Assembly (NCBI GenBank): GCA_026023565.1
Contig: JAPETS010000019.1
Location: 434,001 to 498,000 of the forward strand
Direction of reading: 5' to 3'
DNA length: 64,000 bases
Source of the DNA: Cirrosporium novae-zelandiae
Lineage: Eukaryota
Numbering within the stretch: the stretch's first letter is position 1; the number at the start of each line of letters is the position of its first letter. The translations under genes and the position numbers were made by a program. Positions 27,331-35,487 of the stretch are shown piece by piece. The notes beneath the pieces were generated by a model, which had not been told where the DNA came from, made no database searches, and worked only from the letters and a program-made list of their open reading frames with translations.

Positions 27331-27605
27331 TATTATAATACCACCTAAGACCCTGACACCATAAAATTGATGGTTGTAAGAGATTTTCAAATCAGTCAAC
27401 TGGAGGAAATTTAGTGAACAGAAATCGTTATTGTATATTGCGATACGTGTAGATAGGAACAAAAATAAGAATAACGTGGTAGCTTTGGCTCCGCAGACAG
27501 TTAGGCTAGCCTTGCCAATGACGTAGCCTCGATTTTCCACAGCTACTACAAGTAGTCTACAGCGACTCCCAGACACTCAAATAACAAAACAACATTACAT
27601 CTACT

Positions 27606-28391
27606 ATGACCGACCCCACTCTCTCTTATATCTCTCTGAATTCTTCATGCCGCCCTGCCATCGTCCTCCTTCACGGTGCTTTCTCCTCCCCGAACGAATA
27701 CAGCCTTGTCACTCCTCATCTTCCGAACTACCACCTTCTGATTCCATCCCTTCCCTCACACGCCGCCAGTGCCTCAATCAAGCCCTTCACTCTCACACTC
27801 ACCTCCCGCCTTCTCATGAACCTAATCCGCACCAATGCCAAAGATAAAAAAGCACATATCGTCGGTGTTTCACTCGGTGCCCACATAGCCATACACCTCG
27901 CGGCGAATTACCCGGATGTCGTGTCAGCGGTTTTCGCATCAGGGTATGGCCGGTTCAAGCCGTCAATGTGGGGTCCTGTATTGCCGTACACCGTCTGGAG
28001 CGTACATCGTTTCGAGGCCGCGGTTCCAAACCCCGTAAAGCGATATTTCATGGACGGCGCAGACCTCGATCTTGGAGAAGAGTCTATTTGTACCATTCAA
28101 CTATGTCGAGAGGTTCTTGCTGTTATCGTGTCGCGTGATGAGATTAAGCCGGCAAAGGCGAGGACGTTAGTGATTGCTGCAACCAAACGGGGGTTAGTGC
28201 CAAGCAATGATAGCGTGGAAGATGCGAAGATGGTCGCGGAGATTATGAAGAAAGAGAATGGGGAGAGTAAAGCTGTAGAGATGAATACGATGAGGCATCC
28301 TTGGGATATACAGGCGCCCGAGTTATTTGCCAGATGCGTGGCGGCCTGGATTGAGGGGACAGCGTTACCGGTGGAGATGGTAGAGCTATGA
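27606..28391 (+). CDS. Alpha/beta-fold hydrolase
   Basis: Intronless 261-aa ORF with LLHGAF oxyanion loop, GVSLG nucleophile elbow and a C-terminal His in MRHPW. Confidence 0.88.
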   Translation: MTDPTLSYISLNSSCRPAIVLLHGAFSSPNEYSLVTPHLPNYHLLIPSLPSHAASASIKPFTLTLTSRLLMNLIRTNAKDKKAHIVGVSLGAHIAIHLAANYPDVVSAVFASGYGRFKPSMWGPVLPYTVWSVHRFEAAVPNPVKRYFMDGADLDLGEESICTIQLCREVLAVIVSRDEIKPAKARTLVIAATKRGLVPSNDSVEDAKMVAEIMKKENGESKAVEMNTMRHPWDIQAPELFARCVAAWIEGTALPVEMVEL

Positions 28392-31172
28392 AGGTGAAGA
28401 TCGTGAATGCCAATGACCAGTGCATCATATATGCGCATTTATTTCTAGCCAATGGAATTTGGATCTAGAATCAAGATGCGGTCCGTCATCCGTGTATGAA
28501 TTTTCATATCACCTCCTCAAACTCAAGAGCCCGCACATCTATTCAACGAAGCCCTAAGTCCTCGCGCCCAGGTTTAAACGACCTAATACACCAGCTTAGG
28601 CTATCTGAATACGGCCCTAATGCTACAAGTACTTGACAATCGATCTCTCAAAAGAGCGATCTATTAGGAGGTCTTGGTGGTATCATCCGCGCTCCTAGCT
28701 CACCGTACGTCGTCACATACAGCCAGAATCTAGTCGTCTCGCTCATACGATGTTTTCGAGAATTTGTGTTGAGGCTTCTATTAGCACTGCTAGCTACGAC
28801 TGGAGACACAAATGAAGAGACAATGCTGGATTTGGATTAAATTGTTAACATTTCATAGAGACATCTAACGAGTTTCTAGGCCTGAAATACAAACTACCAA
28901 CCTTCAGGGGCACTGCAAAGTGCCGACTCTGCAGTCCTGTTATCAGCTGTGTAGGGATCTTTGCCGGTTTGTATGTGGATCTCCAGCAGCTGGTATACAA
29001 ATCTTCATGCCAGCAGTATTCTATCTCCTGACACTTAGTATGTAGCCAGTCTTCTTCTGAGATACCTCTGTTGGAAATGAACATGCTCTTAATGGGTGCG
29101 ATGCTCCCTCGAATATCGACCTAGCTCTTACCACTAAATATTGAAATTGTCAAACTACCGTTGCCATCACCGATCAGATCGCGACCTGCAATCACACCTA
29201 GCTGTGACAGAATCTTTGTATTCCAAAATAGTAGCGCCTTCACCATTTACTATTCCTACTTCGATCTGCTGTATACAAATTTCTAAGGACACCAGGACCA
29301 GCAATACCACGAGATATTATCGAGTGAATGGGGTTTATGGACTACAGCACTGGCCCCTATAGTGAACTTGGTGACGAGCCTTATAGAAAGTCTTGATGAA
29401 ATGAAAGGAGAATATCATGGTGTAGCTTAAAAGAACTAGAAGGATTTCATGAATGAATGACAAGGTAAGATTGAGTAACATTAATGTCGTGAGGCTGCCA
29501 GAAGAAAGTCAGTGATTCATACGACCTATAAAGCGAGAAAGATTAATCAGTAGAATATGATCGAACATAGATATTATAAAGACTTTATTTTCTGCAATAA
29601 ATATTTATTTGTACTCCCTAGTTTCATTTCCATCTTTTGAAAGAACGAGTAACACCGATAATAAGATATCAGCGATGAGTCCAGTATTCAAGCCGAATAG
29701 ACTCTACAGTAGGTACCTAGGTAATTAGGGCTTAAGCATCATCCAATTCGAGTTAGCAACTCCCAGAAAGTCCAAGCTCCTCCGCACCCAAAACCCATTC
29801 ATCAACCCAAAAAATTTCTTTCCCTCAAATCTATCTTCCATCTAGAAGACTACCGTAACTGGATACCCAACAACGACCACTAAGTCTAGAGGTATCCAAT
29901 GCCAAAAACATCCTTAATTAGCTCATCATCATATCCCCCCCGCTTTGAAATTGAAAGCTCCCCTTCCAAAGCCACTAAGCTCGAAGAGGCTCACTCGCCA
30001 ACCTGACCCGAGAACGTTATCTATCGTTGGCTTCACTTCATCACGCAACGTTTTTAAGTGGGCCTAACCGGTAAGGTAAGTTATTTTTTCAGATTCGAAA
30101 TGGGAAAACGTATCATCATCACTACCACTAGTCAACAAACAAACAACTCTACTCCACTTCTCATTGAATGGGTACCCAATACCCAATCAACACACACACA
30201 TCAAAGTGCATACATGACATGATGATTGATGCTTAAAAAATATGTTTCAACCCCATATGAAAACTTATCAAGTTGATTCGAAATTGCGCGTCGATTTTTT
30301 CTGAAAAAACTGGTTTGCTTCAGCCAGCCTTTGTTATATATATGGCTATACTATATCGTTTTGAGAGGGGAGAGGGATTTGAATTGGCTAATTCGGAGCT
30401 TTTGGTTTGTTGCGAAAACTAGGTAAAGTGTGATGATCGATTTGACGTCGATGACTATCTACTCGATTGCGGTATCGAATTCGGATTTCCTGATCCTTTT
30501 ATCTATTGGTCTGCTGGATTTGCCGGATAGGTTTTGGTGAGTTTTTTGAAGGAGTTTAATTTACTTGATAATACAATATGTGATTTGGGTTTAGGCCTTT
30601 GTGTACACAATCAACTACTTTAAGATCCTAAGAGCATACATATGTCTAACTAGCTCCCTATGGATCTTGCTTGACCTATTTTTATTGTCCCCTCTCTGTA
30701 ACACAGCTGAAGTCGAAGCATTCTCCATACACTCCTTCCTACACAATTCTCTAAGATGAACAAACACGTTGACTCATGATCAAATAATTCATACTATTTC
30801 CTCATTCTCGTCAAACCATAGGAACAACTCAAAAACTCAATTCGCATAGCGAACAAGAACACCCCCATAGTTCTCATCTCTACACCTCCCAACTTCAGGC
30901 CCCCAAAACCACCCCGTTTGTTATATGCAACTCGTTTCCATGACTGCAACGCAACGCAGTTGTGGACACCCGTCCAATCCTGGTATTTGTATTCCCTGTC
31001 AAACAGACTCCTCTCAAACAAAAAACAAACAACCCCAATTTCATTCATCAAAAGTCATCGTATAGTATAGTGTATAGTACCAGCAATAATAATAATAACA
31101 ATAAACACCCATCCATCCATCCCCCTTTGCTAGCTAGCCCTACCCCCCAATACTATCCTCGGGAGTTTTGGT

Positions 31173-31349
31173 TTAAATAATAACACAAGGAATGCAACAA
31201 AACTCGCACTCGCCGCACGGGGTAGGACATTCACAGCATCCCTTCTTGACACCGGGTTTTGTGAGCGAGGAGGAGGATGTGGTGGTTGAGCCTGTGGTTG
31301 TGGGGAGGACGGAGTTTATGGGTGATGAGAGGGCGGTGGTGATGGCCAT
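31173..31349 (-). CDS. 58-aa Ser/Thr-rich peptide with C-terminal Cys cluster and CAAX box (CVII)
   Basis: Reads MAITTALSSPINSVLPTTTGSTTTSSSSLTKPGVKKGCCECPTPCGECEFCCIPCVII*. Strong start context (CAACCAACAATGG) after a CA-rich leader. It falls below the 60-aa cutoff of the ORF track. Confidence 0.65.
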   Translation of the reverse strand: MAITTALSSPINSVLPTTTGSTTTSSSSLTKPGVKKGCCECPTPCGECEFCCIPCVII

Positions 31350-32292
31350 TGTTGGTTGTGGTGTTTGTGTGTGTATTGTGGACGGGTTGATGGATAAGGA
31401 GGTATGTATGTAGGTATGGAAGTATGTAAGATGCGGTTTGGTTTTAAAAGCTGTGAAGAGAGAGTAATTAGGTCAGTAATTAAGAAAACAAGAAAAGAAG
31501 CTTAAGCTTATCCATTCATCCATACCTTGTGTTTTCTTTGGTGTGGGGGAGAGATAATTTGCTCCGAGTTCTTCAGATCGATATTTATTCTTTTCGCAAA
31601 AGAAGAAGTTAGATGTTGAGCGTTGGGCGTTGGGCGTTGGCGTAAATAAATGTCCAAGAAAGAAAGAAAGAAAAAGAAGTCGAAGTAATTAGAAGAAACA
31701 AGGTCCTTCTTCTTATTTGAATATTTAGCTTGGGTTTCCCTACCAAGAAACCAAGCCACTCATTATTCTCCACTCTCCATCTCATTCACTCCATTCAACT
31801 GCCTTGCCTTTGCCATACCCTTGCCATACCCTTGCCAGAGACTCGCGCCAAGTTATGGTTAACGTTATGAAATATGCAAGTACCTTGTAACTTACACTAC
31901 CACCAACTTAACTACAGAGAGCTGAAAGTTAATTACGGTTAATTACGTTAATTTTACCCACTTACTCGAGTACCTAGGTAGTTAGTGACGATGATGATGG
32001 AGCGCAAGACCTGCAACGGGCGGTTAGTAGCTAAGTTAATTAGCTAATTATTCTACTCGAGTAGAGGTAATTACTTGTAGCTACGTCAATTGAAACCAAA
32101 AAAAAAAACAGCTTTTTTTTTGTTTAGGAATTCTTGTACCAAAGTATTTTATCATTGTTAGTTTAATCTTCCTTTTCACTCTCTCTGATTGATCAATAAT
32201 TGGGCATACATTATAGGTATCCATGAATAAATGAATGAGCCTGACATGCCTGAGCCTTTGGCTTGCATTGGCCTCTACACCGTACACAAATG

Positions 32293-32294
<2 letters not shown>

Positions 32295-32350
<56 letters not shown>

Positions 32351-32351
32351 C
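32295..32351. repeat. (AAC)19 microsatellite
   Basis: Perfect trinucleotide run, directly visible. Confidence 0.95.
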
Positions 32352-33961
32352 TTAAAAAAAATAAAACAGTCGCTCTGTATTTCCCTTTTCCATTCCCACG
32401 TCCCATGTCTCCCATCTACCAAAAACTTAATCCCATTCATCCACACATACATCCATGCACAAGGGAGGCGGGGGGCATTGCCTTGCCGCCGCTGCACGCT
32501 GTGGCGCCTAAAAATTCCTCCAGTTTCAACAAGAATATTCCATGGATATGGATATGATTGGGGAGAATGATTTTCTTCTTTTTCTTTTCGTTTTAGGTTT
32601 TATGCACACCGCCACGAACTTTACCGTTTGAACAACACTTTAGATGTTTTGGGAGAGTTTTTTTTTTTCATTTTTTCCAATGTTGGTTGTAATTAACTGG
32701 ATGGATTGATGAATTGGTTTGATTGGGGTAGATTAACTTAAATTATTGGATAAAGGTGGCTGGGGCGGTACGGTTGTGGACGTCATGGATGTGTGGGTGT
32801 ATTGCGTGTGGCTTGTGGCTTGGCGGGTTAAAGCACCCACGCATAAATGTACAGCCTCGAGCTTGTTTTGTGATGAATAACTAATAGGTATGCGTGTTAT
32901 GTAATCGATGATATAAAGATTTGCCATGTGTTTGCTTAGTTTGAAGTTCCTCTATAGTGAGGTAGGGTAGGTGTGCCTCCGTGATGAATGGATTACCTTG
33001 AGAGAAGCCACTCACAACACACTTATCGCTGTATTCTTGAATAACGAACAGCTTAAAAAAACAACATTCGAGGTTTCAAGGTCGATTCGACGACTCTATG
33101 GGCCATATGGAGCAATCATCTGTCATCTTCTTCATCGGCCTTCTCGTTTCAGTCCCTCTCGCATGAACGCTTTCTTTTCAGGTTGGACGAGGCCTTTTCT
33201 TTGAAGGGTGAATGGAATCGACCCCCTGATGATATATATCTATGCGCTCGAGATCAACGAAGATGGCACGCCGTCGTTCGATACTCTAGAAAAATATATT
33301 TGTTTGCAAAGGTCGCGAAAAATGACATCGGTTGCAGCGACAGAGCTTTACCGGCGGAGCGCTGCACAGAATCGTCGCATTCATAATTATCTTTGACCAT
33401 TCCTCCAGCTCAAGAAATTAATATCATGTGTATAGTCTTTACACCAAGATTAAGATTCTACTCTATTTAGATCCTTTTTATTGCTGTTATATCGCGTGGA
33501 GAGATAGCGTCCTTACTCTCCGCTAGGAACTGATGGAGCTTTCAGTTCGTTGGACGGAGCTAGGAACGCAGGGCTCATGTCTATATTCACCTATCAAAAA
33601 GAAAATAAAGGAGCACACTCGGCATTATGAAAAATTTAAGGTTGTGTATAAATTCAAGGAGTGGCTAGAATGTTTTTGGACTGTGAACTTTGATGGATGG
33701 ATGGATGAATAGATACTGAATGAGGCGTGGGACGTAGTAAAGGATGTGCACAAGGCAGTGTATGATGAGTGGGTGAAAATAGCTCGGGAGTTAAGAGTTT
33801 GCGGAGATGGCCAAATGGTAGAGAAGGCTGATAGACAGGCTATTCGGTTCTGGGTGAATACGTTATTTTTAAGTGTCTCGGGGATAATGATGTCCCTAAT
33901 GTCTCGCTTGCATTGCGCGATTATCTAGGTCTGCTATTTACGCGGCTTCTCCTGGAATGTG

Positions 33962-35487
33962 TTACTCCTTTACATCGCCATCGTGCTCTTTATGCTGTTT
34001 CCCGCACACCAGTGGGCTCGTACAGTGGGTCTGGTGTATTGCTGGCTGACCCCATTTCTCCATCCATTCCGACGCAACTGCCGCACCCGCAGTGATGCGT
34101 TCAGAAGGCTCATAACCCAGCATTCCTCCCAAGAGCTTCTCAAGACACATCATTTCCTCTGGACAGAACTCACATGTTGCAGGGTCCTCTCCTCGTCCCA
34201 TGATACATAATCGCTCAGATAGCGGGCGGGGATATGGCGCATGACCGCGATTTGTGTCCATCTTCCATGCCCCATCTTCAAGGAAAAAGTCTGTCCTCTG
34301 CTGCCATTGCTCCCACCAACGCTTTGGAAGGTGTCCTAGCGTACTGACCATCTCTGCAATCACATGGTTCTGGCCTGGCATGAATCCTTCAAATAGAGGG
34401 CGATCGCCAAGAATATCATAGAGAGTGCAACCAAGAGTCCATATATCAATTGCCGGGCCTATAGGCTCATGAAAGAACACTTCTGGTGGAAGAAGTAAAA
34501 TAGGGGTATGCAGTGCTTTACGCTCTTCATCGTTAAAGAACGCCCCACCAAAGTCTGAGATGACAACTCGGGCGTCCACAATTTCCTCGCTTGACTGGAT
34601 CATAACAGGTAGGACACAGTATCTTGGAACTTCTGGGCCGAGAGGATTCTTATCCAGTCGTTCCACAGGTAGCCTCTGAGGTTCCCCTAATCGGCGATAC
34701 AGATCCTCGATGGTACACCATTTGAAACCAGGAGATCGGAATAGGATATTGTTTGAATGCAGATCTATTCTCGGCCATCAATATGTTATTGTACTAAGCA
34801 ATGAACCTAGCTAGTCGGACTTACCGCTGTGTATCACACCACATGAGTGGATATAGTCCAATCCTAGAAGAACTTGAGCGGATATAGCCCTTGCTATGTT
34901 GACCGGAAACTTCCATGTGGTGCTAGTTTCCTTTGATTGAGCAACACTACAACTAGCAGCGTCGCTCACGATACACAGGTGGCGGCCGTTGGGCCCATAA
35001 ATAACAAACTCGTCCAGCAGCGACGAAACATAGGCCCGTCCTGGGTGATCTGGCTTCCCTGAACTTAACACACGTAAAATCCAGCTTTCTGTGCTCTTTT
35101 CAAAGGCAGCTGCAACAAGGATTTTCAGTGCAAGATATCTCTTTTCTAGGTGATCTTTAGCAAGCCAGACTGTAGAGGAACTCCCATGACCGAGTTTATG
35201 GACGACTTCATAGCGACCATCAAGGTATTTATCGCCGATATAAGTTGGATGATAACCACCCGGGCGATAGCGCCCTAGGTCCTCAACATACCCTCCTGCC
35301 ATTGGTATATTAATTCAGGAAGAGTAGTCGAGTCTTCTTGAGGCTGCATGGAAAGATTCTGGTATGACAGAAAGGTTCTCTTGTGCTGTGGAGATGACAG
35401 TTGAAAGACGCTGGGGTACTTTTTCGGAATGCGTAGACGGGAGAAATCAGGTATCCTCTTGGGGGCAATAACATCTAGTAGTGCCAT
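33962..35487 (-). CDS. SRPK-like (CMGC) Ser/Thr kinase with an apparent frameshift near the 5' end
   Basis: YRPGGYHP, KLGHGSSSTVW, ALK, HSDLHSNN (intron 34765-34824), DFG, PPE and DIWTLG. The upstream frame (…YQWQEG) is out of frame with VEDLGRY at ~35288. The ATG at 35302 would rescue the kinase domain. Confidence 0.8.

Follow-up and report, generated by a model that had tools for sequence, protein, structure and literature searches.

A predicted eight-cysteine CaaX peptide of the putative Leotiomycete a-factor family and its possible role as a lipid-anchored microprotein

Introduction

A C-terminal CaaX box directs prenylation of its cysteine, removal of the aaX residues, and methylation of the new end. 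Cysteines adjoining the box are the usual sites of S-acylation, as in Ras and G-gamma subunits, and an acidic tail tends to suit metal binding more than S-acylation. The heavy-metal-associated isoprenylated proteins (HIPPs) of plants combine CxxC motifs with a CaaX box and contain a folded HMA domain.

Among fungal pheromone genes, the a-factor locus of Sordariomycetes is marked by cyanate lyase, with the pheromone gene located downstream in variable order (PMC3068285), and this linkage is not universal among a-factors (PMC3068285, PMC10182648). The h-type precursors are defined by three copies of the peptide, one of them at the C-terminus (PMC3068285), and the Huntiella repeats begin with Arg (PMC10182648). 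Aspergillus fumigatus ppgB is cited in PMC11787670. Wilson et al. (2023) described a "putative Leotiomycete a-factor" (S10 File, PMC10569646), defined as peptides of 45–64 aa with a Ser/Thr-rich N-terminus and a terminal CAAX/CPAX, present in at least 111 Leotiomycete species; GY occurs near the C-terminus in 87 of the at least 111 published members. Palmitoylation serves as the membrane anchor of the yeast CYSPD proteins (PMC10840359).

Here, we analyze a small gene in a 64,000-nt stretch of fungal DNA on contig C40, hereafter the window, and compare its predicted product with these systems.

Results

An isolated open reading frame with a cysteine-rich CaaX tail

The gene is an open reading frame (ORF) of 58 aa with a TAA stop codon on the minus strand of the window (31349-31173), and its translation terminates in KKGCCECPTPCGECEFCCIPCVII*. 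The preliminary description of this DNA had recognized the ORF; the minus strand and a 75-nt 5'-UTR intron candidate (31525-31451) were missing from it. The start codon is flanked by CAACCAACA-ATG-G, a strong context that agrees with the excellent one claimed there. The coding region was defined as follows.

31173-31349, minus strand: coding sequence of 58 aa plus TAA, without coding intron (single match in its own genome)

One match was obtained in the 31.4-Mb assembly by protein search and by the C-terminal motif pattern alike, and the gene is the sole family copy found in its genome. A strict CaaX box together with at least five Cys in the last 21 residues was present in 1 of the 365 window ATG-ORFs of 30–120 aa. 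No ORF in 200 third-order Markov simulations of 64 kb each had both a strict CaaX box and a dense Cys tail, and none reached at least eight Cys in the last 21 residues. The ORF is real and beyond chance, and the previously reported eight-Cys tail with a CAAX end was confirmed, being unmatched among these ORFs and simulations.

None of the 32 stop-to-stop frames of at least 60 aa between 28.1 and 34.2 kb matched Pfam, in agreement with the earlier remark that no other clear gene lies within about 5 kb, and Rfam gave no match in 28000-34500. The nearest recognizable genes are located on either side.

27585-28388, plus strand: alpha/beta hydrolase
33965-35314, minus strand: kinase

The window is fungal, judging from its intron-split genes; these code for kinases, 2OG-Fe(II) dioxygenases, a laccase, a tyrosinase, and a sugar transporter. 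Its region 3000-61300 is rich in oxidative enzymes (laccase, three 2OG-Fe(II) dioxygenases, and tyrosinase) and also contains genes for NAD epimerase, class-III aminotransferase, alpha/beta hydrolase, sugar transporter, methyltransferase, and amidohydrolase. No PKS or NRPS was seen among the window frames scanned.

Layout of the predicted peptide

The following elements were distinguished in the peptide.

31257-31349, minus strand: residues 1-31, Ser/Thr-rich N-terminal part, probably disordered (composition; no confident fold)
31254-31268, minus strand: residues 28-32, S-L-T-K-P, corresponding to the family motif S-[IL]-x-K-P (alignment A4 and homologue count)
31188-31238, minus strand: residues 38-54, Cys cluster with the CxxC units C38/C41 and C45/C48 and the CC pair C51/C52 (alignments)
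31173-31187, minus strand: CaaX box CVII and stop codon (C55 invariant in alignments A1, A3, and A4)

Ser and Thr account for 55% of residues 1-31, and the segment SPINSVLP (residues 9-16) fits the P-[VI]-N-x-x-LP block of Aspergillus-type members. K31 is near-invariant in alignment A4, and the relaxed form of S-[IL]-x-K-P was found in 76 of the 88 complete homologues; judging by its sequence, the motif may be a docking site. Around this lysine, many Leotiomycete members in A4 read [IV]-K-x-[ED], the SUMO-type consensus, which is not the case in the window peptide or in Botrytis.

Cysteines occupy positions 38, 39, 41, 45, 48, 51, 52, and 55. The last 24 residues thus hold eight Cys, against six (83/88) or seven (5/88) in relatives, and the cluster is about four residues longer than in the closest relatives. 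The tail is acidic (net -1 across residues 34-58), and the last 20 residues of the homologues contain on average 2.9 D/E. No hydrophobic segment was detected (best 19-residue Kyte-Doolittle mean 1.0); a transmembrane segment is absent, as is, by hydropathy alone, a signal peptide. AlphaFold2 modeling with a 38-sequence alignment yielded no confident fold (pLDDT 51.6, pTM 0.12).

Upstream region

Three elements were predicted upstream of the start codon.

31350-31450, minus strand: 5'-UTR exon of 101 nt, C/A-rich, ending in the start context (inferred from sequence)
31451-31525, minus strand: predicted 5'-UTR intron of 75 nt with GTATGG donor, ACTGAC/CTAAT branch site, and CAG acceptor (sequence signals)
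31581-31588, minus strand: TATA-like element ATAAATAT, upstream of the intron (sequence)

The intron candidate ends 101 nt upstream of the ATG. A similar 5'-UTR intron was predicted in 10 of the 16 family loci that could be used, the window gene counted, compared with 164 of 3200 shuffles (5%) and 0 of 16 antisense controls, using a splice pattern written after the sequences had been seen. An upstream coding exon was considered and rejected: the frame stays open with the intron removed, but the nearest in-frame ATG (-339) leads to a stop after seven codons.

The 8-mer ATAAATAT occurs upstream in 6 of 12 family loci, a weak recurrence. A crude scan for metal-response motifs found one MRE, no Ace1, one CuRE, and three loose ZRE-like sites upstream of the window gene; in relatives, MRE-, Ace1-, and Mac1-like motifs were not consistently enriched in the upstream regions. 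Sites resembling CACAGCC, a motif described for calcineurin/Crz1 (PMC2873923), numbered 13 in 11 relatives against a shuffle mean of 5.2, a count reached by 2 of 300 shuffles. Regulation by calcineurin/Crz1 was rejected: the motif had been picked post hoc from 13, the window gene has no site within 1 kb, and three of the sites, at about -71 to -76, seem to represent the intron acceptor. The promoter scans yield no usable regulatory clue. Two repeats were noted in the same region, an 11-bp tandem repeat (31810-31837) whose 2.5 copies lie some 470 nt upstream of the ATG and a (CAA)n microsatellite (32293-32351) that yields spurious poly-Cys and poly-Gln/Thr/Asn ORFs.

Relationship to the published family

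The exact peptide was absent from the sequence collection searched, and with the single window sequence a search by five-residue words gave no candidates and phmmer gave one 1000-aa low-complexity match and otherwise none. A metagenome motif scan returned at least 113 loci among the matches listed. Complete family ORFs were found in 19 of these 113 and a split ORF in one more; within each of two pairs the encoded protein is the same, and the remaining listed loci are chance matches. The split ORF (L096) is distributed across frames, unlike the window gene, which has no coding intron.

When the window peptide was compared by hhalign with 16 relatives aligned without it, the probability was 95.9 (E 5.4e-9). 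Its HMM score was 21.3 bits, the next best of 2120 window frames scoring 8.0, and this value was reached by 0/5000 full shuffles, 2/5000 half-wise shuffles, and 0/5000 CaaX-keeping shuffles. The Cys-free N-terminal half by itself scored above shuffles against Aspergillus-type members (its score was reached by 0/3000 each for P0126, P0127, and P0075, 1/3000 for P0128, and 14/3000 for P0129), and it was not above shuffles against P0011 (Sclerotiniaceae) or P0131 (Fusarium). The same three ESM Atlas clusters ranked top for the window peptide (0.79-0.84, taken as a lead only) and for Fusarium graminearum FGSG_05361 (0.88-0.94). As judged from sequence, the window peptide is a divergent eight-Cys member of the putative Leotiomycete a-factor family.

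A FastTree phylogeny of 38 members, built on a short alignment with midpoint rooting, placed the window peptide as sister to the metagenome sequences L111/L104 (support 0.92), inside a clade of Aspergillus and Cercospora members and not with the Leotiomycete ones. In a test of synteny, tblastn matched none of the window frames to 18 family loci, many of them short.

Codon comparison of the window gene with L111 gave pS 0.61 and pN 0.26, with 13 of 23 identical residues encoded by different codons, and eight pairs of relatives had pN of 0.05-0.20 and pS of 0.38-0.93; these values come from protein-based alignments, which lowers pN. The family relatives are, by this measure, under purifying selection. 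The window ORF might instead have arisen by chance, or be a copy that is decaying or not expressed; this would accord with its divergent sequence, for which phmmer and common five-residue words gave so little, and with its as yet putative transcript. Its frame, start context, and intron signals are nevertheless all intact, its synonymous divergence from L111 exceeds the nonsynonymous, and its genome holds no other family copy that was found, which together make a dead or chance ORF very improbable.

Range and conserved features of the family

A search with the family profile yielded 121 matches (the best 120 of 121 listed) in Botrytis, Sclerotinia, other Leotiomycetes, Fusarium, Colletotrichum, Apiospora, Xylaria, Hypoxylon, Diaporthe, Gaeumannomyces, Ophiostoma, Sporothrix, Claviceps, and Sordariales. 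The orders matched outside Leotiomycetes were Hypocreales, Glomerellales, Xylariales, Sordariales, Diaporthales, and Ophiostomatales. A search with the subfamily extended this range to Cercospora beticola (E 4e-5) and two Aspergillus species, whose matches are weak (E 6e-3 and 3e-2) and have the same layout. Aspergillus family members are 54 aa long, and A. fumigatus ppgB, which we take to be a 24-aa peptide, is shorter.

A terminal CaaX box with the Cys cluster was present in 88 of 126 matches, and relatives differ mostly at synonymous sites, so that the earlier reading as a conserved protein-coding gene holds. In these 88, the box ends in M 64 times, in L 22 times, and once each in I and S. 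The other 38 matches have a divergent C-terminus and resemble mis-spliced gene models. Many Sordariomycete gene models stop after the first C-x-E or within the CaaX box, pointing to small coding introns that were mis-spliced in annotation. Conserved features of the family include the invariant CaaX Cys, the CC pair 3–5 residues upstream, the invariant first Cys, and CxxC. The GY dipeptide is not defining, because it occurs in only 52 of the 88 complete homologues, where it lies inside the Cys cluster; it is absent from the window peptide. For 38 aligned members, no Pfam family was found at E up to 1 and no meaningful match in PDB.

FGSG_05361 (P0131) belongs to the family, and its 55-aa sequence is found in identical form under names of F. 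oxysporum as well (UniRef n=21, Fusarium). This gene was not found in 12 of the 19 supplements of PMC4559316 and is named in no paper of the literature searched, which lay mostly outside subscription journals. Some Apiospora members are auto-named "Metallothionein" in UniRef; these names carry no weight, because a member of the same cluster is called "Transcription factor BYE1."

The window peptide has the published size, Ser/Thr-rich N-terminus, and terminal CAAX. The suggestion of an undescribed class is not supported, the family having been described in 2023 as a putative a-factor (S10 File, PMC10569646). Within the same literature, again mostly outside subscription journals, it was published once, in that article. 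New here are the eight-Cys variant, the named Sordariomycete members including that of F. graminearum, and the within-genome a-factor test.

A conventional a-factor candidate in the same genome

The genome was searched for C-x-[VIM]-M-stop codons, that is, with the last residue restricted to M, and one of the 63 translated matches was a 39-aa ORF with a good start context (P0154, G000:C43:251307-251426, plus strand, equal to L158:1396-1515). It contains three GGCTVM repeats with Arg-Gly as the linker, and every unit begins with Arg. It thus fits the three-copy h-type definition and the Arg-initial repeat pattern. Its ATG is located about 1.18 kb from the predicted start of cyanate lyase (C43:250125), the two genes being head to head. 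The cyanate lyase gene on C43 therefore adjoins a CaaX gene different from that of the window on C40, and P0154 is unrelated to the window peptide. No EBP2 or MYND neighbors were found near P0154 among the frames scanned (those of L205 being outside the scan). P0154 is a strong candidate for an a-factor/h-type precursor, and it would be notable if the host lies outside Sordariomycetes.

Several other observations were made in this genome. An alpha-factor precursor (L011, G000:C66, about 205500-206060, minus strand) contains the repeats WCHRPGQPC, WCGRPGQGC, and WCGRPGQPC; WCHRPGQPC is absent from the PMC10569646 supplements, and the other two are known in Leotiomycetes. A 38-aa ATG-ORF on C75 (L173, G000:C75, about 155040-155152, plus strand) ends in GCCGGCVVM and may be either a CYSTM-like microprotein with a CaaX box or the final exon of a larger gene. 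Contigs C35 and C47 have identical pattern matches at identical coordinates (L180/L190 and L181/L191), which suggests a duplicated contig in the assembly.

Discussion

In line with the membrane-anchored micropeptide option of the preliminary description, we somewhat favor the reading that the family represents a conserved intracellular microprotein of filamentous ascomycetes, tethered to a membrane by lipids, and is not the a-factor. The window peptide would then be prenylated and probably S-acylated, with its CxxC units available as free thiols or metal sites. A protein prenyltransferase would add farnesyl or geranylgeranyl to C55, after which aaX would be cut off and the new end methylated. 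A DHHC acyltransferase would S-acylate the neighboring C51/C52, by which the peptide would be held stably at the cytosolic side of a membrane. Glu/Asp and Gly flank the CxxC units, which are doubled in the window member and may remain free as a thiol or Zn/Cu site, and the disordered Ser/Thr-rich arm with S-[IL]-x-KP may contact a partner. Such a protein would work in a mode like that of the lipid-anchored Cys microproteins of yeast CYSPD (CYSTM), with a prenyl group added. As a speculation, the insertion of about four residues, which creates the second CxxC, would suffice for one four-Cys metal site and leave C51/C52 free. Counted against the lipid anchor are the acidic tail, which is suited more to metal binding than to S-acylation, and the lack of a Pfam match to CYSTM or any family for the 38 members.

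An alternative is a prenylated metallothionein, in which most of the seven non-CaaX Cys bind Cu(I), Zn, or Cd, not palmitate, and the metal is buffered or handed over at the membrane. The CxxC, CxC, and CC spacing with acidic neighbors, the gain of Cys in lineages by CxC or CxxC insertions (from six to eight), and the modeled absence of a fold without ligand are consistent with it. Against it, MRE-, Ace1-, and Mac1-like upstream motifs were not consistently enriched in the crude scan, no metallothionein profile or solved structure was matched in Pfam or PDB, and palmitoylation of CYSPD proteins has been argued to leave their Cys unavailable for metal (PMC10840359). Nor is the family F. oxysporum Mt1, an identity that was considered and rejected: of the Mt1 RT-PCR primers at +150 and +396 (PMC7549990, compared by eye), one encodes residues absent from the family. 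On balance, a metallothionein seems unlikely.

The published pheromone label is probably wrong for the family. As a precursor of a secreted a-factor-type lipopeptide, be it a mating pheromone or a second, autocrine signal, the peptide would undergo prenylation and cleavage upstream of the Cys cluster, and a Ste6-type ABC transporter would export it. It is indeed short and Ser/Thr-rich, has no signal peptide by hydropathy, and ends in CaaX; its genome contains STE3 and an alpha-factor precursor; one genome may hold more than one lipopeptide signal; and the proposal has been published for at least 111 Leotiomycete species (PMC10569646). The last residue of the box does not exclude an a-factor either, because CxxL ends also occur in listed Colletotrichum a-factors. 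The pheromone option of the preliminary description is nevertheless weakened by the coexistence of the family with unrelated recognized a-factors in Fusarium and Colletotrichum and by the separate three-repeat candidate at the cyanate lyase locus of the same genome. In G. zeae, the a-factor is a 21-aa peptide unrelated to the family (S2 File, PMC10569646), and expression of GzPPG2 is MAT1-2-specific (PMC4559316). C. asianum, C. gloeosporioides, and C. orchidophilum have an S2 File a-factor plus family matches that are partial, as are the gene models. For the Botrytis cinerea family member, RPKM was 180 in a MAT1-1 strain, and mixed tissues gave 46-198 (S4 Table, PMC10569646); that of M. fructicola was undetectable in five RNA sets (PMC10569646), so expression is not constitutive everywhere. 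The authors of that article themselves pointed to mating-type-independent expression and identical sequences across species, both of which, in their view, argue against a mating role. The a-factors in S2 File of PMC10569646, read by eye, lack a Cys cluster before CaaX, and in its Neurospora-type peptides GY directly precedes the CaaX Cys, a position it never takes in the family (0/88); the window peptide has no GY at all. A secreted lipopeptide is accordingly quite unlikely in our view, and a small membrane-tethered protein is more likely because the family is widespread in fungi with a different pheromone.

There is a modest chance that the family is an unrecognized filamentous-ascomycete class of prenylated metal-thiolate microproteins, a minimal counterpart of plant HIPPs. 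If so, Zn or Cu would be held, or redox sensed, at a membrane, the window member having a doubled CxxC; the published Leotiomycete a-factor would be misidentified; and P0154 would show where to seek true a-factors in classes lacking one.

The a-factor claim of the literature becomes directly testable, since the family sits beside recognized a-factors in F. graminearum and Colletotrichum. At about 55 residues, the gene has been retained in at least two, probably four, classes of fungi, and it is identical in F. graminearum and F. oxysporum. Gene models mostly miss or mis-splice it, no Pfam family covers it, and it offers a cheap target in the search for new lipid-anchored functions. The comparison also exposed P0154, the strong conventional a-factor candidate.

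The closest described system is the homologous BCIN_13g03330 family of B. cinerea, which the window peptide resembles in length, the Ser/Thr-rich N-terminus, S-[IL]-x-KP, and the succession of CxxC, CC, IP, and CaaX. It differs in having eight Cys instead of six and a second CxxC, in lacking GY and the NGPG motif, and in ending in CVII, not CTVM. Fungal metallothioneins are likewise small and Cys-dense, and we know of none with a conserved CaaX box. Plant HIPPs have a folded HMA domain that is absent in the window peptide.

The mfa-1, ppg2, HPP1, and Huntiella a-factors share with the window peptide a short length, no signal peptide, and a terminal CaaX/CpaX. Unlike it, the Sordariomycete a-factor/h-type precursors have no Cys cluster and are often repeated; they lie by cyanate lyase in many species (PMC3068285) and are mating-type specific (PMC4559316). 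It is P0154 on C43, not the window gene, that fits this description, although it is head to head with cyanate lyase, whereas the pheromone gene lies downstream in the published loci. The yeast proteins Cpp1-3 (CYSPD/CYSTM, PMC10840359) resemble the window peptide in being small with a C-terminal Cys cluster; the term CAAX does not occur in the consulted part of PMC10840359. They show no sequence match to the family, which adds a conserved CaaX box, CxxC, and a Ser/Thr-rich N-terminus. The Cys cluster of Cpp1-3 anchors them by lipid and not by a transmembrane helix, in the same manner as proposed for the window peptide.
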